A DNA stretch of 64,000 nt from Calditrichia bacterium (GCA_028284905.1 JANQQU010000003.1:1-64000); one strand, 5' to 3'; shown: positions 7,805 to 48,578, counted from the stretch's first letter. Notes: generated by a model not told the origin, from the letters alone. Translations and numbers: made by a program.

Positions 7805-9103
7805 CTAGCTGTCCAGTCCCAGTCGCTGAAATACGGTGTTAATATTTCTCAATCGATTTTCCAGACTGCAAATATTATCGAGCGTTTCCGCAGAGAGATA
7901 TTGCAGCACCGTTTCATCTTTTTTCAACTCGTCCAGCAGCGTTGTCTGATTATGCCAGACGTTTAAGGCATTTCGCTGCACCAGGCGATAAGCCTCTTCC
8001 CGACTAACGCCCTGATCCACCAGGTTGAGCAGGATCGACTGGGAAAATACCAGTCCACGATTCGCTTCCAGGTTTTCTTTCATGCGGTCGGCATTTACTA
8101 CCATCCCATCGAGCAGGAAGCGGGTTTTCTCCAGCATGTAATAGAGCGTAATGGTTGCGTCCGGCATAATGACTCTTTCTACTGAAGAATGGGAAATATC
8201 CCGTTCATGCCAAAGCGCGACATTTTCCAGGGCGGCAACCAGATGCCCCCGTAACAAGCGGGCCATACCGCTAATCCGCTCGGACACGATCGGATTTTTC
8301 TTATGCGGCATCGCAGACGACCCTTTCTGGCGGGAACCAAAGGGTTCTTCCACTTCCAGCACTTCTGTGCGCTGCAGATGGCGAATCTCCACGGAAATCT
8401 TCTCCAGTGTCGCAGCGATAACGGCCAGCATGGACATATATTCCGCATGGCGATCCCGTTGCAAAATCTGCGTAGAAATCGCCGCCGGCTTCAGGCCCAT
8501 TTGCTCACAGACATATTCTTCCACGAAAGGCTCGAGATGGGCAAAGGTTCCCACGGCACCGGAAATCTTACCGGCTGATACCGTTTCAATCGCTCGTAGC
8601 AGGCGTTCCCGGTTCCGTAACATTTCACTATACCAAACTGCCAGCTTAAATCCAAATGTCAGCGGCTCGGCATGTACGCCATGGGAACGTCCCACAGCTA
8701 CTGTATCCTTATATTTAACTGCCTGCTTTTTTAGAACGGCGATTACGCTATCGACTTTTTCCAGGATCAATTCGCCGGCTTGCTTCATTTGCACTGCCAG
8801 TGTGGTATCCAGTACATCCGAGGAGGTCATGCCGTAATGAATGTGGCGGGAAGGTTCACCGACATATTCAGCAACATTGGTTAGAAAGGCGATCACATCG
8901 TGATGGACTTCCGCTTCAATATCGAGTATGCGCTGGACGTTAAAGTCCGCTTTTTCCCGAATAACTGCGACATCCTCGGCGGGAATGTCTCCTAATTTTG
9001 CACGTGCTTCGCAGGCATGAATCTCAATGTCCAGCCAAATGCGAAACCTGTTTTCGTCTTCCCAAATTTTCCCAATTTCCGGGAGCGTATAACGTTCGAT
9101 CAT
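7805..9103 (-). CDS. purB: Adenylosuccinate lyase
   Basis: 432 aa. SSDVLDT, GRSHGVHAEPLTFG fumarate-lyase signature. Confidence 0.95.
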   Translation of the reverse strand: MIERYTLPEIGKIWEDENRFRIWLDIEIHACEARAKLGDIPAEDVAVIREKADFNVQRILDIEAEVHHDVIAFLTNVAEYVGEPSRHIHYGMTSSDVLDTTLAVQMKQAGELILEKVDSVIAVLKKQAVKYKDTVAVGRSHGVHAEPLTFGFKLAVWYSEMLRNRERLLRAIETVSAGKISGAVGTFAHLEPFVEEYVCEQMGLKPAAISTQILQRDRHAEYMSMLAVIAATLEKISVEIRHLQRTEVLEVEEPFGSRQKGSSAMPHKKNPIVSERISGMARLLRGHLVAALENVALWHERDISHSSVERVIMPDATITLYYMLEKTRFLLDGMVVNADRMKENLEANRGLVFSQSILLNLVDQGVSREEAYRLVQRNALNVWHNQTTLLDELKKDETVLQYLSAETLDNICSLENRLRNINTVFQRLGLDS

Positions 9104-30273: not shown

Positions 30274-30996
30274 TTAGGAATCTTTCTTCTTGCCGGCTAA
30301 TTTCTTTTTCAACTGTGCTAATGCATCTTCTACGGATTTATCCTTCATTGCCTTATCGAGATCGATTTCTTTCTCTTTATCGGCACTTTCCAGCTTTAGC
30401 AATTCTTCCGATGCTTCCGCTTCTGCTTCCATTTGCAGGATCTTACCTTCGTAGGATTCCAGGGCTTTAATGGAGTCCAGATCACTAATGGAACTGGAAA
30501 TACTTCCCATTGCTTCCCGGGATTTCTTCAGAGCATTCTGGGTGCGCATTTGCGCGTCTGCGGCCAGCTTGCGCCGAATCAATTCTTCTTTCTTCCGCCG
30601 GGCGGTCTGAACCTGATCTTCCAGTTTATCCAGATTTTCCTTCATCTTTTCCGCGAGTGCTGTGGCAGTTTCTATTTCAGTTTCCAGGGCGCTTACCCGG
30701 TTGTCCAGTTCCAGCTTTTTCGTAATAATCTGACGGGCAAATTCCTCGTCGCCGCTCTCCAGGGCTGCTGCTGCCTTTTTCTCCAGCACCTCCGCCTGTC
30801 CACGGGTCATTTCGATTTTCTTCTCCAATTGCTTTTGCTGACCAATCGCTTTCACGGTTTCCCGGCGGAGTTCGATAATGCTTTCTTCCATATCGCGGAT
30901 AAGCTGTTTTACCATTACCTCCGGATCTTCAGCGGCATCCAGCATATGATTCACATTTGCTGAAATCAATTTGGAGATACGTTGTAAGATGTTCAT
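30274..30996 (-). CDS. pspA: PspA/IM30/Vipp1-family membrane-stress protein (copy 2)
   Basis: 240 aa. MNILQRISKLISANVNHMLDAAEDPEVMVKQLIRDMEESI is the canonical PspA N-terminus. Confidence 0.9.
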   Translation of the reverse strand: MNILQRISKLISANVNHMLDAAEDPEVMVKQLIRDMEESIIELRRETVKAIGQQKQLEKKIEMTRGQAEVLEKKAAAALESGDEEFARQIITKKLELDNRVSALETEIETATALAEKMKENLDKLEDQVQTARRKKEELIRRKLAADAQMRTQNALKKSREAMGSISSSISDLDSIKALESYEGKILQMEAEAEASEELLKLESADKEKEIDLDKAMKDKSVEDALAQLKKKLAGKKKDS

Positions 30997-31053
30997 GATA
31001 GAACCTCCATTAAGGATTTGTATTTACTTCGGACAGTCTGTGCTTGTCCCCCG

Positions 31054-31443
31054 TTAAGCCTGCATGATCCGCCGGATGTCTAGCCCTTCCTTATCGAGAG
31101 TGATTAACAAACCGGTCGATGCTTTGCAGTGCTTCAGGTAATTTCTTAATTTCACTTCATCGGTCAGGTTAATTTTTCTGTCCAGGCGGATAAACACCGC
31201 CAGGTCGTCAAAACACAAGAAGTCTTCTGTTACTTCTTTTCCTGATACTGCCGCAACTGCTCTGAGATTTTGAAATTTAACATTCTTCAGTTCGAATTCT
31301 TTCATCAATGCTTTTGCATAACTGCTGTTATTGTTATGCTGGGCGGTGCGATAAAAAGCGCGTTGCGCAGCGCGGATGATTAAAAAGGTTTTGGCCTCCC
31401 AGATGTCGGCCGCTTTGTTTTGATGTTTGCTTGTGTGTACCAT
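31054..31443 (-). CDS. GxxExxY-family (PD-(D/E)XK-like fold) small protein
   Basis: 129 aa. The pattern ...YAKALMKEFELKNVKFQNL...DFLCFDDLAVFIRLD...LRNYLKHCKASTGLLITL matches the GxxExxY architecture. First gene downstream of the sigma-54 promoter. Confidence 0.45.
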   Translation of the reverse strand: MVHTSKHQNKAADIWEAKTFLIIRAAQRAFYRTAQHNNNSSYAKALMKEFELKNVKFQNLRAVAAVSGKEVTEDFLCFDDLAVFIRLDRKINLTDEVKLRNYLKHCKASTGLLITLDKEGLDIRRIMQA

Positions 31444-31535
31444 TGCCCTCTACCCTCGTCAGCACATTAAATCTTCTGACTTTGCCTTCTTTAAGGCTTT
31501 TTCTTTTTCTCTTTTAACTTGCTACTTGTGCTATT

Positions 31536-31552
31536 CGCAACAGGTGTGCCAA
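31536..31552 (-). promoter_or_regulatory. Sigma-54 (RpoN) promoter, -24/-12: TTGGCACACCTGTTGCG
   Basis: Exact TGGCAC-N5-TTGC on the minus strand. Lies ~90 bp upstream of the GxxExxY gene and 0.54 kb upstream of pspA copy 2, and immediately downstream of the pspF-like gene. Confidence 0.7.
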
Positions 31553-31587
31553 ACAAGGGAATGCGGGTTTCAGGGGTTTTTCGGGGG

Positions 31588-31634
31588 AAATTTGGTGGTT
31601 TTTTTCGCCAACTTGGTTTTTTTCACCACCAATT
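31588..31634. promoter_or_regulatory. Inverted repeat AATTTGGTGG-N27(T-rich)-CCACCAATT upstream of the sigma-54 promoter (candidate enhancer/UAS)
   Basis: Arms at 31588-31598 and 31626-31634, lying 40-100 bp upstream of the -24 element. Confidence 0.35.
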
Positions 31635-31644
31635 ATCTGGTGTT

Positions 31645-32619
31645 TTACACCATTAATTCTTCAAGCTTGTATTTCTTATAGAAGTGCCGAAACTGATCGT
31701 AAGTCATTCCGAGCATCTCCGCGGCACTGCGCTGATTGCCTTCGGCTTCTTTCAATGCATTTAGGAGGAGGGTCTTTTCGTAGGCGCGAACTTTCTCGTA
31801 AAAATTTCCGCGAATGGGTTCTACCGAGGTAATTTCCATTGGCAGCTCGCTGGCGTGGATCGTGCCGTCTTCATCATAAAAATAAAGCCGCTCTATCATG
31901 TTTTTTAGTTGGCGGATATTGCCGGGCCAATAATAATTTTTCAGTTCGTTAATGGCCGAGGGCGTAAAGTTTTTTTCATCCAGATTGGGAATTTCCCGAT
32001 GGAGTTTGTCGATGAAATGGGCGATCAGGGCGGGAATGTCCTCCCGACGCTTTCGTAGGGGTGGGAGGGTTAGCTCTGCAAAAGAGAGGCGATCGTAGAG
32101 GTCTTCCAGGAATTCGCCATTTTTCATCATCTTTTCCAGGTCGGCATTTGTCGCGGCGATAATCCGTACATCGACGGTAATCGATTTGGTGCCCCCTAAT
32201 CTTTCGAACTTCTGATATTCAATTACCCGCAGCAACTTCTCCTGCACCGTGCGATTCATGTTCGCCACTTCATCGAGGAACAATGTACCGCCGTCGGCAA
32301 TCTCCAGTTTGCCGGCCTGGGCGTCAACCGCGCCGGTATAAGCCCCTTTCTCCCGGCCAAACATTTCAGCGATGATCAAATCTTCCTGAAAAGCGGCACA
32401 GTTTACAACAATATATGGTGCCTCGCCACGGCCGCTCTCGTTGTGAATGAATTGGGCAAGCAGCTCCTTGCCGGTGCCTCGCTCTCCACGGATCAACATG
32501 GGGCGGGCAATTTTTGCATAAGTAGATGCCTGCTGTAAGACTTTTACATATGCTTCGCTGTTCCCGATGCCAAAAGGAATTTTATTTTCGATTATTTGTT
32601 TTTTCATTTCGCCGGCCAT
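31645..32619 (-). CDS. pspF: PspF-like sigma-54-dependent transcriptional activator (AAA+ domain + C-terminal HTH, no receiver domain)
   Basis: 324 aa. Walker A GERGTGKE, GAFTGA-like loop (GAYTGA), Walker B/R-finger region, C-terminal Fis-type HTH. The receiver-less architecture is typical of PspF. Confidence 0.85.
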   Translation of the reverse strand: MAGEMKKQIIENKIPFGIGNSEAYVKVLQQASTYAKIARPMLIRGERGTGKELLAQFIHNESGRGEAPYIVVNCAAFQEDLIIAEMFGREKGAYTGAVDAQAGKLEIADGGTLFLDEVANMNRTVQEKLLRVIEYQKFERLGGTKSITVDVRIIAATNADLEKMMKNGEFLEDLYDRLSFAELTLPPLRKRREDIPALIAHFIDKLHREIPNLDEKNFTPSAINELKNYYWPGNIRQLKNMIERLYFYDEDGTIHASELPMEITSVEPIRGNFYEKVRAYEKTLLLNALKEAEGNQRSAAEMLGMTYDQFRHFYKKYKLEELMV

Positions 32620-39104: not shown

Positions 39105-39416
39105 TGGAGGGGAGGGAAGGAGTATAAATAAACTTAATTGGGGTTTTGCTACTGTTCTCCTCAACAACTTTACATAGAACAAACCTCATGCCATATTCTG
39201 GTCACGTTTAAAAAACGCAACACCAAATTCCATAAACTCAATTTTTACAAAATCTTAAACAAAGACCCTTATTAGTAAGCCCTGGCTAATAATGCCCGTT
39301 TGTGCGTATTAATACACAGCGAATCAGTAAAACTGGGGGATATGCCTCAGATGCAAAAAAAACGGCAGACATTAAAAAATGCCCGCCGTGAAATATGCTT
39401 CGTAGCTGTCGATTAA

Positions 39417-39909: not shown

Positions 39910-40638
39910 TTAATTTTCCTCCAGAACGTTAAATTCTACACGACGATTTTGCTGCTTGCCGCTCTCTTCATCATTATTAGCCAACGGCTTAGTTGCGCCA
40001 TAGCCAGCACTCTTCAGGCGGGCACCATCAATATTTTTCCCGATCAAATATTGGCGAACAGCGTTGGCGCGATTTTTACTTAAGTCCAGGTTATACTGAG
40101 CATCGCCTGTGGCGTCTGTGTGCCCGGCAATTTCAATAACAGATGAAGGCTTCTGATTTAAAATGCCGGCAATTTCATCTAGTAATGTATAATTGGCGAC
40201 ATCGATAACCGCACTGTTAGACTCAAACTCGATCGTTTTCCCGGCCAGCAACGCATCCAGCTTAATCTGTGTTTCGGTTTTAGGCTTCGCTGGTGCTGCT
40301 GTAGTATCCAGCGGTGGCGGGGCTGGTGCCGCGACGGTCAGATTGTTTACCACACCGGCCACCCCATACACATCGCCAACGATGCCCGTTGCCTGGTCAG
40401 CAACCTCCTCGCTGGCAACTTCCCCGGCCAGGATTGCGTGGCGACCATTAAAACTCACATCCGACAACGAAATACCAGCATTTGTTAACGCTTCCCGGGA
40501 GCGATCGGTAAGATCCCGGGCCATCTCATCTGCATGAAGAAAAATGCAAAGCAGGCAAATGATCAAAAATCCCAGGAGCCCCAAAATAGCAAGGGTAAAT
40601 CTGCGTTTCATCTTAAACCTCAGTATTATTGGTAGCAA
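39910..40638 (-). CDS. OmpA-family protein with BON domain (peptidoglycan-associated, OmpA/MotB C-terminal domain)
   Basis: 242 aa. BON-like segment, then OmpA_C: IEIAGHTDATGDAQYNLDLSKNRANAV...NRRVEF. Confidence 0.85.
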   Translation of the reverse strand: MLPIILRFKMKRRFTLAILGLLGFLIICLLCIFLHADEMARDLTDRSREALTNAGISLSDVSFNGRHAILAGEVASEEVADQATGIVGDVYGVAGVVNNLTVAAPAPPPLDTTAAPAKPKTETQIKLDALLAGKTIEFESNSAVIDVANYTLLDEIAGILNQKPSSVIEIAGHTDATGDAQYNLDLSKNRANAVRQYLIGKNIDGARLKSAGYGATKPLANNDEESGKQQNRRVEFNVLEEN

Positions 40639-40802: not shown

Positions 40803-42179
40803 TTAAATCAAGTGATACTTCTCCAGGCGATAGCGAAAGGTATCCCGGCTAAGGTGCAGCAGCTTTGCTGCCCGGGACTGATTGCCCTCGGCAATCGCCA
40901 TTGCATCCTGCAACAGTTTTTTCTCAATTTCATCGAATGAAATGCCTTCCGGTGGTAATTTAAACCGTTCCAGCGGCGAGGCGGATGGTTCGCTGCTACT
41001 GAGCATACCGATCTGCAGATCTTCCGCATCAATCGCATCTCCTTCGACAAAGATCATCGCTCGTTCAATAGCATTGCGCAATTCCCGGACATTCCCAGGC
41101 CATTCGTGATTTCGCAATTTATTCCGCGCTTCCGAGGTAAATCCCTTTACTGATTTTTTGTAGCTGATATTCAGCCCATTAACGAAATTACTAGCCAGCG
41201 TGAGAATATCATCCCCCATCACTCTCAAGGAGGGAAGATCAATATTAACAACGCTTAAGCGATAAAATAAATCTTCCCGAAATGCTTGTTCGTGGACCAG
41301 TTTCTTTAAATGACGATTGGTAGCGGTAATCAATCGAATATCTACGGATATTTCTTTATTACTGCCCAGTCGGCGAAAACGGCGAGTTTCCAAAAAGGAG
41401 AGCAGCTTTGCCTGCAGCTTCGGCGGCATTTCCCCAATTTCATCGAGGAATAATGTGCCATTATGTGCTGTTTCCAACAGTCCGGGCTTCGTGGTCATCG
41501 CATTGGTGAATGCACCCTTTTCGTAGCCAAACAGTTCGGATTCCAGCAATGTATCCGGAATCGCCGCACAGTTGATTTCGACAAATGGCGCCTGGCTTCC
41601 CTGGGATGAGTAATGGATAATGCGGGCTATCATGCTTTTTCCGGTGCCGCTTTCTCCGGTAAGCAGGATTGTTGCTGTCGGGATCTTCGCAATCTTTTCG
41701 ATCGTACGCTTCACTTTGCTAATCGGCTCGGAGTCTCCCCAGATATGAGCAAATCCTTCGCTGGATTGTGCTTTTAAAATGCCTTCAAGTAGTTGTATTT
41801 CATTGCGTTGTTGGTTGACTTGCTGTTGCAGTGTCGCTTTATCGGTAACATCCGTTATCAGGCAAAAGAGCGGCTTATCCGCATCATCAGTGGGATGAAA
41901 CGAAATATTAAAATAGTTAATCTCGCCATCTTCAGATTCGCGGTTGATATTTTCCAGGGAGAATGTCGGTTGGCTGCCATCGATAATGGCAGAAAGGATT
42001 GCTTCCAGGCCAAAAGTTTCCGGGAATAGCTGGGTAATGGACTGCCGCTGAACATCCCCGGTGGAAACTGTAAAGCGAGCAAACCGTTTGTTCGCAGTCA
42101 CTACCCGGCTCTCCGGGGAGAGATAGGCGAAACCGTAAAGGTTCTGACTCAGTAAATTTTCAAAAAACAGCGTGTCCAT
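40803..42179 (-). CDS. Sigma-54-dependent transcriptional activator with N-terminal PAS domain (no receiver domain)
   Basis: 458 aa. PAS, AAA+ (GESGTGKS, GAFTNA variant of GAFTGA, ESELFGYEKGAFT), C-terminal HTH. Confidence 0.9.
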   Translation of the reverse strand: MDTLFFENLLSQNLYGFAYLSPESRVVTANKRFARFTVSTGDVQRQSITQLFPETFGLEAILSAIIDGSQPTFSLENINRESEDGEINYFNISFHPTDDADKPLFCLITDVTDKATLQQQVNQQRNEIQLLEGILKAQSSEGFAHIWGDSEPISKVKRTIEKIAKIPTATILLTGESGTGKSMIARIIHYSSQGSQAPFVEINCAAIPDTLLESELFGYEKGAFTNAMTTKPGLLETAHNGTLFLDEIGEMPPKLQAKLLSFLETRRFRRLGSNKEISVDIRLITATNRHLKKLVHEQAFREDLFYRLSVVNIDLPSLRVMGDDILTLASNFVNGLNISYKKSVKGFTSEARNKLRNHEWPGNVRELRNAIERAMIFVEGDAIDAEDLQIGMLSSSEPSASPLERFKLPPEGISFDEIEKKLLQDAMAIAEGNQSRAAKLLHLSRDTFRYRLEKYHLI

Positions 42180-42182
42180 AAT

Positions 42183-42710
42183 TTAGCTGGATGCAATAAG
42201 TAGACCAAGTTTTTCAAATGCGGCTTCAACATTATTATTTTCTTTTGCACTGGTCAGCAAGACCGGCGCTTTTAATGTCTCACCCAGTTCTTCAAGTTGC
42301 TGGATATTCTCACTCTCGGCAGCAATTAAATCAAATTTATTTCCGGCGAGCACAAATGGCGTACCGGGTGCAGTTTGCTGATAGGCTTCGACAATATTAT
42401 TCGCGACCGAAATACTATCCGGGCGGGTAAGATCGGAGACAATTAGCGCACCGTGGGCGCCAATCATATAATTCTGAATTTGTGGCGTAATCACTTCCGC
42501 GCCTTCAATATCCCAGAGCAAAAAGTTAAACTGCACTATTTTGTGTTGATCGGTTTCTATTGGAGAGAGGAGTTTTTGACAAACTTTGATACCGATGGTA
42601 GATTTGTATTCATCATCAAATTTGTTATATACAAATCGTTCGACCAGGCTCGTTTTACCGACCCCGAACATTCCCAGTATACATATCTTCTTCTGATTCA
42701 TGCTGTTCAT
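42183..42710 (-). CDS. Ras-superfamily small GTPase (MglA/Rab-like)
   Basis: 175 aa. P-loop GMFGVGKTS, switch I T (TIGIKV), WDIEG (DxxG), GNKFDL (NKxD), SAK. Start is 4 nt after the upstream activator's stop... tight spacing with both neighbours. Confidence 0.8.
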   Translation of the reverse strand: MNSMNQKKICILGMFGVGKTSLVERFVYNKFDDEYKSTIGIKVCQKLLSPIETDQHKIVQFNFLLWDIEGAEVITPQIQNYMIGAHGALIVSDLTRPDSISVANNIVEAYQQTAPGTPFVLAGNKFDLIAAESENIQQLEELGETLKAPVLLTSAKENNNVEAAFEKLGLLIASS

Positions 42711-42711
42711 T

Positions 42712-43596
42712 TTAGCTGTTCTGTGTTACTTCCAGATAGGACTTTAAGGGTTGTTCGATTTCTTTCAGGTGAGAGTTGTCGCCATCATGGTCTCTTAATT
42801 TGCGATAGAAACGACCATGAATGTTTTCATGAAGCTCCCGGACACTTTTCGAGAAATCTTCCGGAGGAATGCCATTATAAACAACTGCAAGATAGCTGTA
42901 AATGGCACTATCGATGCGAATGGTTGATTTGCTGTGCTCAATTTCCCGAAGCTCGCCGGGGTCATCGTTCGAAAAAGATGTTTCCACAAAGGATTTAATT
43001 GCCGTCAGCATTCCCCCGATAATATGCGCATCATCATTTTCAGGAGATAATCCTTCCCGGTTGGCGTAAGAGACTAATAAACCGGAGTTCTTTGCAATCA
43101 GAAAAACCCGCTGTATCTCAAATGGTAGTGCATCTCTCATTATCAATTCTGCCTGGCTAACGCCTTTGAAGCGAGCAATAAGCGATCGAAACCAACGGGA
43201 GAAGTTGAAAGTTTTGTTCAGCTGTTGATTGATATTCGCCGCGAATTTTTTCATCGCTTCAGTGACGGCTTTGCTGACCATTCGCCCGACAATCGGGTAC
43301 ATCGCATCAACCATATCTTCTTTGGCATCGCGAATTTGGACTTTGATCGCCTCGCTCATCACCGGTGCCAGGGACTCCGCCATTTCCGCTTTGGAATTAC
43401 GAATCTTATTTTCCAGTAACTCCGCGATTACCGGTTGCAGGGTTTCGATGAGATGATCTTTCTCGTTCAGCTGTTCATGAAGCCGCTGAATTTCCGCTTC
43501 AAGTTGCTGGATACGATTCTGATCTTCGGTAAGCAGCAGATGCTTTAACTGTTTGAAGGGGTCATCAAAAGAATTTGGTATGTCCCGATTATTCAT
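42712..43596 (-). CDS. Roadblock/LC7 (MglB-like) domain protein with N-terminal coiled-coil extension
   Basis: 294 aa. C-terminal ~110 aa alpha/beta segment (FLIAKNSGLLVSYANREGL...IIGGMLTAIKSF...RIDSAIYSYLAVVYNG) consistent with the Roadblock fold. Ends 2 nt before the GTPase start. Confidence 0.55.
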   Translation of the reverse strand: MNNRDIPNSFDDPFKQLKHLLLTEDQNRIQQLEAEIQRLHEQLNEKDHLIETLQPVIAELLENKIRNSKAEMAESLAPVMSEAIKVQIRDAKEDMVDAMYPIVGRMVSKAVTEAMKKFAANINQQLNKTFNFSRWFRSLIARFKGVSQAELIMRDALPFEIQRVFLIAKNSGLLVSYANREGLSPENDDAHIIGGMLTAIKSFVETSFSNDDPGELREIEHSKSTIRIDSAIYSYLAVVYNGIPPEDFSKSVRELHENIHGRFYRKLRDHDGDNSHLKEIEQPLKSYLEVTQNS

Positions 43597-44011
43597 CGTT
43601 ATTCAGTGCGTCACTTTGTCCGTTAGTTAGCTGAACTTTTTTGCCTGTCTGCAACCGCTCTCCCATTTCTATCAGATACTCTGCCAGTGTAGACCGCTGT
43701 ACGCTGTTTTGGTCACATGATTTTATCATGCCACTCAAACGAGTGTCGAGATCTTGCAAACGATCCTGAAAATTTTTGTCCAGATCGGATATCTGCGAGC
43801 GCAGTTCCTGATGTTTTTCTTCATTTGTCGTTTTCAAGGTGTCGATCGATTTTTGAAGCGCGTCCAGGGATTGCTCGACTCTTTTTTGCAACGCAGCGAC
43901 TTCGCCGGTTACAGAATTAAACTTTTCATTTAATGCATCTACCTGTTGCCCAAAAAGCAACTGGCGAATTTGATCCATGGTGTTTTCAGAAGGGGCATTA
44001 CTCTTGCTCAT
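43589..44011 (-). CDS. Coiled-coil protein of unknown function
   Basis: 140 aa, all-helical heptad character. Overlaps the downstream gene by 8 nt (translational coupling). Confidence 0.5.
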   Translation of the reverse strand: MSKSNAPSENTMDQIRQLLFGQQVDALNEKFNSVTGEVAALQKRVEQSLDALQKSIDTLKTTNEEKHQELRSQISDLDKNFQDRLQDLDTRLSGMIKSCDQNSVQRSTLAEYLIEMGERLQTGKKVQLTNGQSDALNNDE

Positions 44012-44178: not shown

Positions 44179-45063
44179 CTATCGGGTAATATTCAGGTTA
44201 CCAGAACGATTTACCGGCAAATCAATATTTTTTAACAGTGGCAAAGAAGTATCAAAACCAAATGTGCCATCAAAATTGTAATTCACACTGTTATTCCCGG
44301 AAAGCAGGTTAAATACGGTTTGACCGACTTCCAGAAAGTTCAGAGAAATCGGCACACGCAGGTTTCCTTTGCCATTTCCGGCAATCTGCATCGCCTGACT
44401 GCTTAACCCTTCTGCCCAATTTTGGCCATTCACATTAAAATTGTAGTTCATATTTTTTAAGGAGAATGCAAATCCATTCGGGTTATCCACTTCGATGTTC
44501 AGGGCTAAATCCGCGCCGGTCAGGTTTAATTTATCCAATTTCAGTGAAGCAACTTTCACTTTCGGCACCTTAATCATTGGCACCTCGCCACTATGACTGA
44601 CAGGAATTCGGGTTTTGCCAAGCAGGGGAAGGTCTACGGTTACCCCGACGTCAATCTTGTAACCAGAGTTATCCTGATTTTTCAAAGCGGCGAAAGTGTT
44701 ATACAGATCTTTAAAATTTAGGGTGAGCGGAATTTCAAAGTTACTGGTTTGGGCGGCGCCGATTTCCTGCGGCGAGTCCTGCTGCCCGGTGAGGAATGAT
44801 GACTGATTGATCTGGAAATCGTAATCGAATCCCATCAGATTAGCGGACACCTGATTCGGATTTTCTACGGCCAACTCAACTGCCAAATCGATATCACTCA
44901 GGCTCATACCGGTAAAACGGACATTTTTTACACTCACATTCGGCTTCTGCACATTCATCAGGTTCTGAACGGTGGCACAGCCAGCAAACCATAAACAAAG
45001 CGTCATTAGCATCCAGAAAGAGAGTCGCTTTTGTAGTAACTTAGTCATATGAAATTCCTTCAA
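44179..45063 (-). CDS. LEA type-2 (water-stress/hypersensitive-response domain) lipoprotein, two LEA_2 repeats
   Basis: Lipobox WFAGCAT. Repeated VKNVRFTGMSLSDIDLAVELAVENPN / LKLDKLNLTGADLALNIEVDNPN motifs. Confidence 0.7.
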   Translation of the reverse strand: MKEFHMTKLLQKRLSFWMLMTLCLWFAGCATVQNLMNVQKPNVSVKNVRFTGMSLSDIDLAVELAVENPNQVSANLMGFDYDFQINQSSFLTGQQDSPQEIGAAQTSNFEIPLTLNFKDLYNTFAALKNQDNSGYKIDVGVTVDLPLLGKTRIPVSHSGEVPMIKVPKVKVASLKLDKLNLTGADLALNIEVDNPNGFAFSLKNMNYNFNVNGQNWAEGLSSQAMQIAGNGKGNLRVPISLNFLEVGQTVFNLLSGNNSVNYNFDGTFGFDTSLPLLKNIDLPVNRSGNLNITR

Positions 45064-48207: not shown

Positions 48208-48223
48208 TGGCACGGCATTCGCA
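48208..48223 (+). promoter_or_regulatory. Sigma-54 promoter candidate: TGGCACG-GCAT-TCGCA
   Basis: The -24 TGGCACG is perfect. The -12 is TCGC (GC retained) with correct spacing. It lies ~45 bp upstream of the ATG at 48267. Confidence 0.5.
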
Positions 48224-48266
48224 AAAGGCAGTGATGAAAACGAAACAGACAACGGAGGTTATCAAC

Positions 48267-48578
48267 ATGCAATATTCAAAAAAGTTATTATCGCTGATTT
48301 TCCCGGCAGTGCTTGCCGTATTAATGTTTAGCAGCTGTGCCACTCGTACCGTCTATGTTCGCACCGGCCCACCGGTAGCGAAAGTAGAGGTGCGCACCGC
48401 CAAACCTTACAATAATGCTGTATGGATTTCCGGGCATTATGTTCGTAAAGGAAATACTTATGTCTGGAAAAAAGGATACTGGACAAAACCGAAAAAAGGA
48501 TTTGTTTGGGTGCCCGGCCATTGGAAAAAATCGCGCGCTGGCTGGACCTGGAAAGCCGGCCATTGGAGACGCGCCTAG
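48267..48578 (+). CDS. YXWGXW-repeat lipoprotein
   Basis: Start at 48267 (RBS GGAGG), not the upstream GTG. Lipobox MFSSCAT. Repeats GHYVRKGNTYVW / GYWTKP / GFVWVPGHW / GWTWKAGHW. Confidence 0.6.
   Translation: MQYSKKLLSLIFPAVLAVLMFSSCATRTVYVRTGPPVAKVEVRTAKPYNNAVWISGHYVRKGNTYVWKKGYWTKPKKGFVWVPGHWKKSRAGWTWKAGHWRRA

Follow-up and report, generated by a model that had tools for sequence, protein, structure and literature searches.

A probable Group 1 Rup GTPase cassette with a predicted longin-type partner and a sigma-54 activator as its output in a Calditrichia bacterium

We analysed a stretch of 64,000 nucleotides from Calditrichia bacterium (GCA_028284905.1, JANQQU010000003.1:1-64000), hereafter the window. 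Four genes on its minus strand, at positions 40803-44011, encode a coiled-coil protein, a protein with a predicted longin-type domain, a Ras-like small GTPase and a sigma-54 enhancer-binding protein (EBP). This cassette is very probably a Group 1 Rup system, since its sequence carries every feature by which such systems have been described. The Rup family and its Group 1 were defined computationally by Wuichet & Sogaard-Andersen in 2014 (PMC4316618). According to that paper, Group 1 Rup proteins lack the Gln of the G3 motif and are encoded in a conserved four-gene neighbourhood of DUFY, DUFX, Rup and output. DUFY is a coiled-coil protein, DUFX contains an unknown domain that is often followed by a transmembrane (TM) helix and OmpA, and the output is 'typically' a histidine kinase or GGDEF/EAL and carries an invariant Gln towards its N-terminus (PMC4316618). 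The cassette itself is already known from this computational description, and four of its traits appear from the sequences to be new: the sigma-54 output, two features of DUFX (its split and its longin fold) and an altered L1 loop in the EBP. Taken as a whole, the four genes are best explained, with moderate confidence, as a Group 1 Rup cassette with a sigma-54 EBP as output in which the GTPase would control transcription. The four genes are as follows.

43589-44011, minus strand: gene 1, DUFY-type coiled-coil protein, 140 aa (open reading frame (ORF) scan)
42712-43596, minus strand: gene 2, DUFX-type protein, short soluble form, 294 aa (ORF scan)
42183-42710, minus strand: gene 3, Group 1 Rup small GTPase, 175 aa (ORF scan and Pfam)
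40803-42179, minus strand: gene 4, sigma-54 EBP, 458 aa (ORF scan, Pfam and NCBIfam)

When genes were called independently on a Logan assembly of this sequence, the same four were obtained. Direct reading of the junctions revealed an 8-nt overlap between the 140-aa and 294-aa genes (ATGAATAA), a 1-nt spacer between the 294-aa and 175-aa genes (TAA-A-ATG) and a 3-nt spacer between the 175-aa and 458-aa genes (TAA-ATT-ATG). Among the four genes, a clear Shine-Dalgarno sequence (AAGGGAG) was found only at gene 1. The ORFs and junctions bear out the original prediction, made from the sequence alone, of a co-oriented and tightly coupled four-gene unit. It had given spacings of -8, +2 and +4; the overlap is correct, but the other two values are coordinate differences.

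Gene orders of DUFY>DUFX>Rup for Lacinutrix and Rup>DUFY>DUFX for Chloroflexus and Roseiflexus are listed in Table S2 of PMC4316618, and the orders of that table were also seen in the Chloroflexus and Roseiflexus loci collected here. The cassette of Lacinutrix iliipiscaria follows the order given for its genus in that table and encodes proteins of 119 aa and 272 aa (P0106), a 162-aa GTPase and a 506-aa hybrid kinase. Our 140-aa protein aligned with the product of its first gene (DUFY; 25% identity, E = 6e-12), the 294-aa protein with its DUFX (E = 6.7e-34) and the 175-aa GTPase with its Rup (35% identity, E = 2e-30). The N-termini of the two output proteins aligned weakly, and this alignment includes a Q-x-R-N-E motif. 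Placement in Group 1 was drawn from 35-40% identity to the GTPases of the Lacinutrix and Chloroflexus cassettes together with the gene orders of Table S2. The window shares with the published systems the four components, their order, the loss of the G3 Gln, DUFX homologues with TM-(BON)-OmpA and the invariant output Gln. It differs from them in its output, a sigma-54 EBP in the position for which the paper gives histidine kinases and GGDEF/EAL, and in its DUFX, which appears to be cut at the membrane junction with the TM-BON-OmpA half as a separate downstream gene. Moreover, DUFX was of unknown function in the paper and is here predicted to be longin-type, and the host lineage (Calditrichota-like) is not among the 27 members in the paper. 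Neither the separation of DUFX from a TM-BON-OmpA half nor the longin fold of DUFX was found in the 2014 paper or the other literature searched. That literature also yielded no link of a small GTPase to an EBP, and the word 'sigma54' is absent from the supplements of PMC4316618. The original prediction had called the architecture undescribed, which is correct for the sigma-54 output but not for the cassette.

The 175-aa protein matches Pfam Ras (3.1e-28) and Roc, and its nearest solved relatives are Rab31, Rab22, Rab5 and Rab6 (E ~1e-19); in published trees, Rup1 groups with Rab/Ras/Rho/Ran. Its motifs are G1 GMFGVGKT, G2 T38, G3 D67-I-E-G70 preceded by W66, G4 NKFD and G5 SAK. In an alignment of 29 sequences of the GTPase family, G13, G18, K19, S21, T38, D67, N124, K125, D127, S154 and A155 are invariant. 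The position of Ras Gln61 is occupied by Ala71 (DIEGA), and the catalytic Gln is lost. The same position holds a residue other than Gln (A/V/I/F/S/G) in 27 of the 29 members, with Gln only in loci L012 and L069. The GTPase had been credited beforehand with full G1-G5 motifs; it is indeed Ras-like with all five, but that phrase passes over the missing catalytic Gln, a loss that runs through the family.

The 140-aa and 294-aa proteins matched no Pfam or NCBIfam family, giving only sub-threshold coiled-coil noise, and a Pfam scan of both found no match to Robl_LC7 (PF03259) at E <= 0.1. None of the 238 homologues of the 294-aa protein in a 90%-clustered database has a Pfam domain in the shared region. 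In a profile search covering 1.84 billion representatives, the DUFX family comprised 2,459 clusters (at 50% identity) at E <= 1e-30 and 4,816 at E <= 1e-10. We built an AlphaFold2 model of the full 294-aa protein with a 52-sequence alignment, and it divides the protein, in which no TM segment was found, into two parts.

43219-43560, minus strand: helical N-terminal part of DUFX, residues 13-126 (AlphaFold2 helix at a predicted local distance difference test score (pLDDT) of ~55-87)
42718-43155, minus strand: longin-type domain of DUFX, residues 148-293, alpha-beta-beta-alpha-beta-beta-beta-alpha-alpha (AlphaFold2)

Modelled alone, the second part gave a confident structure (pLDDT 83, predicted template modelling score 0.77). 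Foldseek searches against the PDB returned longin domains (TRAPP Bet5, AP sigma, COPI zeta, Mon1-Ccz1 and Sec22b) at E ~1e-4 to 1e-3, and Roadblock proteins (Rag C-terminal domains, MglB and Ego3) in the same range. In the structural ranking the Roadblock proteins stood below 29 longin domains, which had higher scores and more residues aligned. The model has the longin topology beta-beta-alpha-beta-beta-beta-alpha-alpha, with two C-terminal helices packed on the sheet, and two such helices are the hallmark of longin (PMC10933270). Because both are present and confidently modelled, the domain is better named longin-type. A comparison of the family profile with PDB sequences gave Bet5 alone, at a non-significant E of 0.16-0.41. 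The model predicts that the C-terminal domain of the 294-aa protein is longin-type and closer to longin than to Roadblock. The original prediction of a Roadblock/LC7-like fold holds at the level of the superfold and gives way to longin below it. Its coiled-coil extension of ~180 aa did not survive, as the helical part spans residues 13-126 and the variable coiled coil only residues ~20-60 in the alignment.

Residues ~65-125 of DUFX are helical and conserved; they include the invariant P78 and P101 and carry the motif DAxYPIxGxMV. The most conserved element of the protein is the alpha-1 helix GMLTAIKSF. The invariant residues of the family are P78, P101, G172, M196, L197, I200 and F203, and no Arg, Gln or Asn is invariant. 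As a separate observation, residues 65-126 (43219-43404, minus strand) are strongly conserved as LxPVMxxAIKxQI...MVDALYPIxGxMVxKxVxEAMK around the invariant P78/P101, and AlphaFold2 renders them as part of one long helix with only moderate confidence. The helical region varies widely in length in the family. In four homologues of 1,079-1,211 aa (P0155, P0157, P0202 and P0227) the N-terminal coiled coil has grown to 500-650 residues with repeated segments, which precede the conserved helical region, longin, TM, BON and OmpA.

The fourth gene encodes a PAS-type activator. Pfam assigned PAS_9/PAS_4 to residues 17-114 (just above the cutoff), together with Sigma54_activat (PF00158, 1.8e-67), AAA_lid_14 and HTH_8 (PF02954, 2e-12). 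The same scan found no Response_reg domain in the 458-aa protein, in agreement with the receiver-less activator that had been proposed. Walker A is GESGTGK, and no NCBIfam equivalog reached its cutoff. The L1 loop (residues 218-227, region 41500-41530) reads GAFTNA and not GAFTGA. Among the 12 EBPs of such cassettes, 11 have GAFT[N/H]A, in which F and T are kept and the second Gly is replaced; the sole exception is Ignavibacteriae locus L070. The N-terminus of the EBP forms a module of its own.

41799-42179, minus strand: Rup-cassette input module of the EBP, with PAS-like residues 1-113 and the linker helix Q119-Q-V-N-Q123-Q-R125-N-E127 (codon of Gln123 at 41811-41813)

Homologous EBP genes (34-65% identity) were found in 11 further loci (L001, L003-L007, L012, L013, L020, L039 and L070). 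Outside those, the gene that follows the GTPase gene resembles the EBP only over residues 1 to ~141. The shared N-terminal module is fused to five types of output among 69 output proteins.

HisKA/HATPase_c: 43
Sigma54_activat: 12
Guanylate_cyc: 8
HD: 4
SpoIIE (PP2C): 2

A receiver domain is also present in 14 of the 69, entered with the HisKA/HATPase_c group. Gln123 is invariant in all 69, whatever the output domain. E54, G57, R80, Y89, D110, T112, Q119, N126, E127 and L130 are each conserved in at least 87% of them. The PAS-like/Q-linker module accompanies Rup and DUFX across at least seven phyla. In the Chloroflexota loci L011, L035 and L038 the pair of GTPase and output genes is duplicated without a second DUFX gene, and L044 probably has a second pair too, although its second GTPase gene runs into the contig end. 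Because these second pairs adjoin a single DUFX gene, Rup and output make up the tightest functional pair, and one longin protein may serve several Rup/output pairs. Locus L075 has one GTPase gene followed by two output genes.

Conservation of the unit was analysed in one genome per GTDB species, where 589 relatives of the 294-aa protein were found and 80 loci were analysed. A GTPase homologue lies directly after, or one gene before, the homologue of the 294-aa protein in nearly all 80 loci. The arrangement is far beyond chance, because this pairing holds in nearly all of them and over many phyla. The carriers are Calditrichia, Chloroflexota, Cytophagia, Ignavibacteriae, Deferribacteres-labelled metagenome-assembled genomes (MAGs), Cyanobacteria, Sulfurimonas and Cellvibrionaceae. 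Locus L013 is assigned to Caldithrix abyssi, a species with a cultured type strain. The closest relative, locus L001 of a Calditrichia MAG, is syntenic from a LEA_2 gene upstream of the cassette through six genes, at 36-68% identity. In 13 loci the gene immediately before the 294-aa homologue was recognisable as a homologue of the 140-aa gene. The 140-aa protein has two conserved motifs, N-terminal IDQIRxLxFG and C-terminal KVDRxxLGxxLIELG, and hhalign matched the profile of its N-terminus to that of the N-terminus of the 294-aa family (83%, E = 9e-6). The original prediction had expected the unit to be conserved in relatives and had staked itself on this and on a Roadblock fold appearing in a structure prediction; neither the 80 loci nor the superfold of the model refuted it.

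Two genes and a terminator-like hairpin lie downstream of the EBP gene.

39910-40638, minus strand: TM-BON-OmpA protein (Pfam BON and OmpA, TM residues 11-40); the likely start is ATG 40611, giving 233 aa
39417-39908, minus strand: TM, coiled-coil and helix-hairpin-helix (HhH) protein, 163 aa (Pfam IMS_HHH and HHH_5, TM residues 1-29)
39362-39389, minus strand: terminator-like hairpin, 12-bp stem then T8, the sole strong one of the terminator scan, after the sixth gene

Long DUFX homologues consist of the longin domain, one TM segment at ~295-345 and then BON and OmpA or SH3_3. In most relatives DUFX is a bitopic membrane protein of this kind, whose BON-OmpA part is periplasmic. The 294-aa protein ends at residue 294, exactly where the TM segment of the long forms sits. 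The gene for the TM-BON-OmpA protein lies 164 nt past the EBP gene, and its product could be aligned with the C-terminal half of the long DUFX proteins of L007 (E = 7e-21) and L008 (E = 9e-16). A short DUFX with a separate OmpA gene also occurs in L001, L003 and L005. These alignments suggest that the TM-BON-OmpA protein is the probable detached periplasmic half of DUFX. The junction of the OmpA and HhH genes is TAA-G-ATG, with 1 nt between them. Conservation of an HhH gene after the OmpA gene extends to L001 and, in part, to L003, and the gene may be the sixth of the unit. The scan found no terminator-like site on the transcribed strand between the start of the cassette and the end of the OmpA gene, and only two weaker hairpins (5-bp stems), both inside the 163-aa gene. 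The transcription unit may comprise six genes, namely the cassette, the OmpA gene and the HhH gene. In L001 the EBP and OmpA genes are parted by a long perfect palindrome, CGTGAAGATGGGGGATTTCCCCC...GGGGGAAATCCCCCATCTTCACG (8798-8850), that is missing from the window, which suggests that the two parts may be transcribed separately in that locus.

The mechanism that we infer as the most plausible for this cassette is a transcription switch gated by the GTPase, and the idea is strengthened because the same N-terminal module is reused on other outputs. In the scheme that we propose, the longin domains of DUFX, dimerised via the coiled coil and perhaps together with DUFY, would form a platform that sets the nucleotide state of Rup, a role for which the predicted longin fold and the strong conservation of the GMLTAIKSF helix speak. 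DUFX would probably be an exchange factor or a scaffold, because Arg, Gln and Asn are all missing from the invariant residues of its family. A cue from the cell envelope or from peptidoglycan, passed on by the BON-OmpA partner, may be the trigger. Rup-GTP would then bind the PAS/Q-linker module of the EBP, and this binding would release or promote assembly of the AAA+ ring and hence sigma-54-dependent transcription. Gln123 on the linker helix, with R125 and N126, would complete the active site of Rup in trans; the effector would therefore also be a GTPase-activating protein (GAP) and reset the switch. As a specific mechanism, in which a longin platform sets the state of Rup, Rup-GTP gates the EBP and Gln123 acts in trans, this is a tentative proposal. 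It is likewise possible, if somewhat short of probable, that the un-annotated DUFX family carries a genuine longin domain hard-wired to Rup1 and that the pair gates the EBP directly with Gln123 supplied in trans. In catalysis of the TBC RabGAP or Rap1GAP type, a GTPase without a usable catalytic Gln obtains the residue from its partner. The authors of PMC4316618 cited this type as an analogy when they speculated on a role in trans for the output Gln, and they also drew a parallel with the actinobacterial conservon. The TBC/RapGAP fold is absent here, and the candidate Gln lies on the linker helix of the effector itself.

Several points count against the proposed mechanism. The roles of the longin domain as guanine nucleotide exchange factor (GEF) or platform and of the Q-linker as GAP are assigned by analogy only. 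The altered L1 loop means that engagement of sigma-54 may be atypical. We searched for sigma-54 promoters as TGGCAC-N5-TTGC with at most 2 mismatches and then by a scored scan with GG and GC fixed, and found none upstream of the cassette, within it or between the EBP and OmpA genes. The number of sites in the window equals the shuffled expectation (61 vs 60.5), and the near-miss sites noticed by eye in the two intergenic regions are wrongly spaced. A search of unusually long DUFX homologues revealed only longer coiled coils and BON-OmpA, and no fusion of DUFX, Rup and output in one polypeptide. In the literature searched, no experimental characterisation of Group 1 Rup was found, and the term is confined to the 2014 paper. 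Finally, the Gly of G3 is replaced (DIAH, DLAN, DIAS) in 5 of the 12 EBP-linked Rup orthologues aligned, a poor fit with a classical switch II, and their sequences suggest that switch II is unusual in these orthologues.

L007 3688-4212, L008 7609-8142, L012 3315-3833, L020 7760-8305 and L039 7718-8251: Rup orthologues without the G3 Gly and the catalytic Gln (WDIAH, WDLAN, WDIAS)

They come from MAGs labelled Cytophagia, Calditrichaceae and Deferribacteres. An EBP gene follows in L007, L012, L020 and L039, and the L008 contig stops right after the GTPase gene.

The roles of the two partners of Rup could also be reversed, with a longin dimer of DUFX acting as the GAP, as in MglB, FLCN-FNIP and NPRL2-NPRL3, the N-terminus of the EBP only reading Rup-GTP, and Gln123 being structural. 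Roadblock/longin proteins do act as GAPs in the MglB and Rag systems (PMC10933270), and Gln123 sits in a linker helix that must pass the signal to very different output domains. However, DUFX offers no invariant Arg, Gln or Asn with which to complement a GTPase missing its catalytic Gln, and an invariant Gln beside a conserved Arg and Asn is the expected look of a trans-acting catalytic residue. We regard this reversal as unlikely, though it deserves some weight. Less likely still is that Rup does not cycle and serves, without any GAP/GEF cycle, as the nucleotide-binding subunit of a complex of DUFX, DUFY and output, either as a pseudo-switch or as a sensor of the GTP pool. In its favour, the family has dispensed with the catalytic Gln and the five orthologues above with the G3 Gly as well, but the invariant P-loop, Thr38, G3 Asp, NKxD and SAK argue for binding of Mg-GTP and a functional switch I, and the invariant Gln of the partner suggests that hydrolysis is retained. 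A PAS domain that senses its own small ligand would leave the GTPase genes merely co-expressed with the EBP, for example under envelope stress, and without direct signalling. The matches of the N-terminal domain are indeed to the generic PAS_9 and PAS_4, but the module tracks Rup and DUFX over the phyla and output types counted above and is co-duplicated with the GTPase gene, which makes this explanation highly improbable.

The original prediction had read the genes as an MglA/MglB-type polarity module whose Roadblock GAP is hard-wired to a sigma-54 activator. There is a likeness, for in the MglA/MglB systems of Myxococcus and Thermus a small GTPase also has a dimeric alpha/beta platform protein as its partner, and the superfold is the same. 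MglA, by contrast, retains a catalytic Gln of its own. The GTPase of the window is of a different family, closest to Rabs and not to MglA, and its G3 sequence W66-D67-I-E-G keeps an Asp that is invariant in the family, whereas MglA-type G3 has Thr in place of the conserved Asp (PMC3000849). The partner, with its longin-like C-terminal helices and its higher score against longin over more aligned residues, has no Robl_LC7 match, and no polarity link is known here. The cassette also fits Rup Group 1, which PMC4316618 separates from the MglA family and its MglB partners. An MglA/MglB module was rejected on the G3 motif and the partner, and we consider it hardly credible.

The preferred reading, a Group 1 Rup cassette with an EBP output, invites comparison with other known systems. 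The actinobacterial conservon (CvnA, histidine-kinase-like; CvnB, Roadblock; CvnC, DUF742; CvnD, GTPase) is likewise a four-gene G-protein cassette with a small GTPase, a partner of the longin/Roadblock superfold and a signal-transduction protein. It differs in having a GTPase of MglA group 2, a genuine Roadblock protein as partner and a DUF742 protein where the present cassette has DUFY. The conservon kinase lies in the membrane and has HAMP and an LPxR tail, and not a PAS/Q-linker module. We rejected the conservon because the cassette proteins include no DUF742 match and the GTPase is Rup-type. The eukaryotic and Asgard longin platforms for Rab and Rag proteins (Mon1-Ccz1, TRAPP Bet5/Trs23, DENN, FLCN-FNIP, NPRL2/3 and the Loki longin 8yqg) share only 6-13% identity with the DUFX domain. 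Unlike them, the DUFX domain is bacterial, stands after a coiled coil and mostly lies directly before a TM helix; the likeness may reflect homology or convergence. The PAS EBPs NifA, PrdR and DhaR have a sensory N-terminus, an AAA+ Sigma54_activat domain and HTH_8 in common with the EBP of the window, and their NCBIfam matches are partial and well below the cutoffs. The present EBP differs in its Rup-cassette-specific N-terminal module and its GAFTNA loop.

Group 1 Rup cassettes are widespread, occurring in Chloroflexota, Cyanobacteria, Bacteroidota, Calditrichota, Ignavibacteriota and Campylobacterota (e.g. Sulfurimonas), and they are also listed for Nitrospirae and alpha-, gamma- and delta-Proteobacteria (PMC4316618). 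With a sigma-54 output, a pathway that in other cases leads to kinases or second messengers gains a simple genetic read-out by reporter fusions or RNA-seq. Because DUFX is naturally split, a soluble longin construct is at hand for biochemistry, and one point mutation of the invariant output Gln would put the trans-catalysis proposed in 2014 to a direct test. Through the predicted longin domain of DUFX, a bacterial Rab/Ras-like GTPase would be tied to the class of regulators by which Rabs and Rags are served in eukaryotes. The prediction also touches on the archaeal origin that has been put forward for the Roadblock/longin families (PMC10933270). If DUFX has a genuine longin domain hard-wired to Rup1, the partnership of longin and Rab-like proteins is not confined to Asgard archaea and eukaryotes. 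If the pair also gates the EBP directly with Gln123 acting in trans, this EBP would be the first to be controlled by a small GTPase, and its effector role would be combined with that of a GAP.

The use of sigma-54 by the host is supported by the sequence of a phage-shock-type locus (30274-32619, minus strand) that lies 9 kb from the cassette.

31645-32619, minus strand: PspF-like EBP, 324 aa, AAA+ and helix-turn-helix only, GAYTGA loop
31537-31551, minus strand: perfect sigma-54 promoter TGGCAC-N5-TTGC, TGGCACACCTGTTGC
31054-31443, minus strand: PDDEXK_3 ORF
30274-30996, minus strand: PspA/IM30

A LEA_2 (LEA14-like) lipoprotein gene (44179-45063, minus strand) lies directly upstream of the cassette across a 167-nt gap; it has 68% identity to its counterpart in the closest relative (L001 4502-5383) and is not conserved in the other loci. 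Alignment of the two intergenic regions with those of L001 showed no conserved element, and a sigma-70 scan showed no promoter enrichment. In four loci, sigma-54-like -24/-12 sites with 10-11 of 11 consensus positions were seen on the opposite strand, 2-4.5 kb upstream of the Rup cassette.

Window 48208-48223, plus strand: sigma-54-like site
L001 4269-4284, minus strand: sigma-54-like site
L003 3533-3548, minus strand: sigma-54-like site
L012 41-56, minus strand: sigma-54-like site

These are possible targets of the EBP, and their count is mildly above chance (~4 observed vs ~1.2 expected). The site in the window precedes a small lipoprotein ORF with WXXGXW repeats (48231-48578), and that of L001 precedes a secreted acidic protein of 281 aa.

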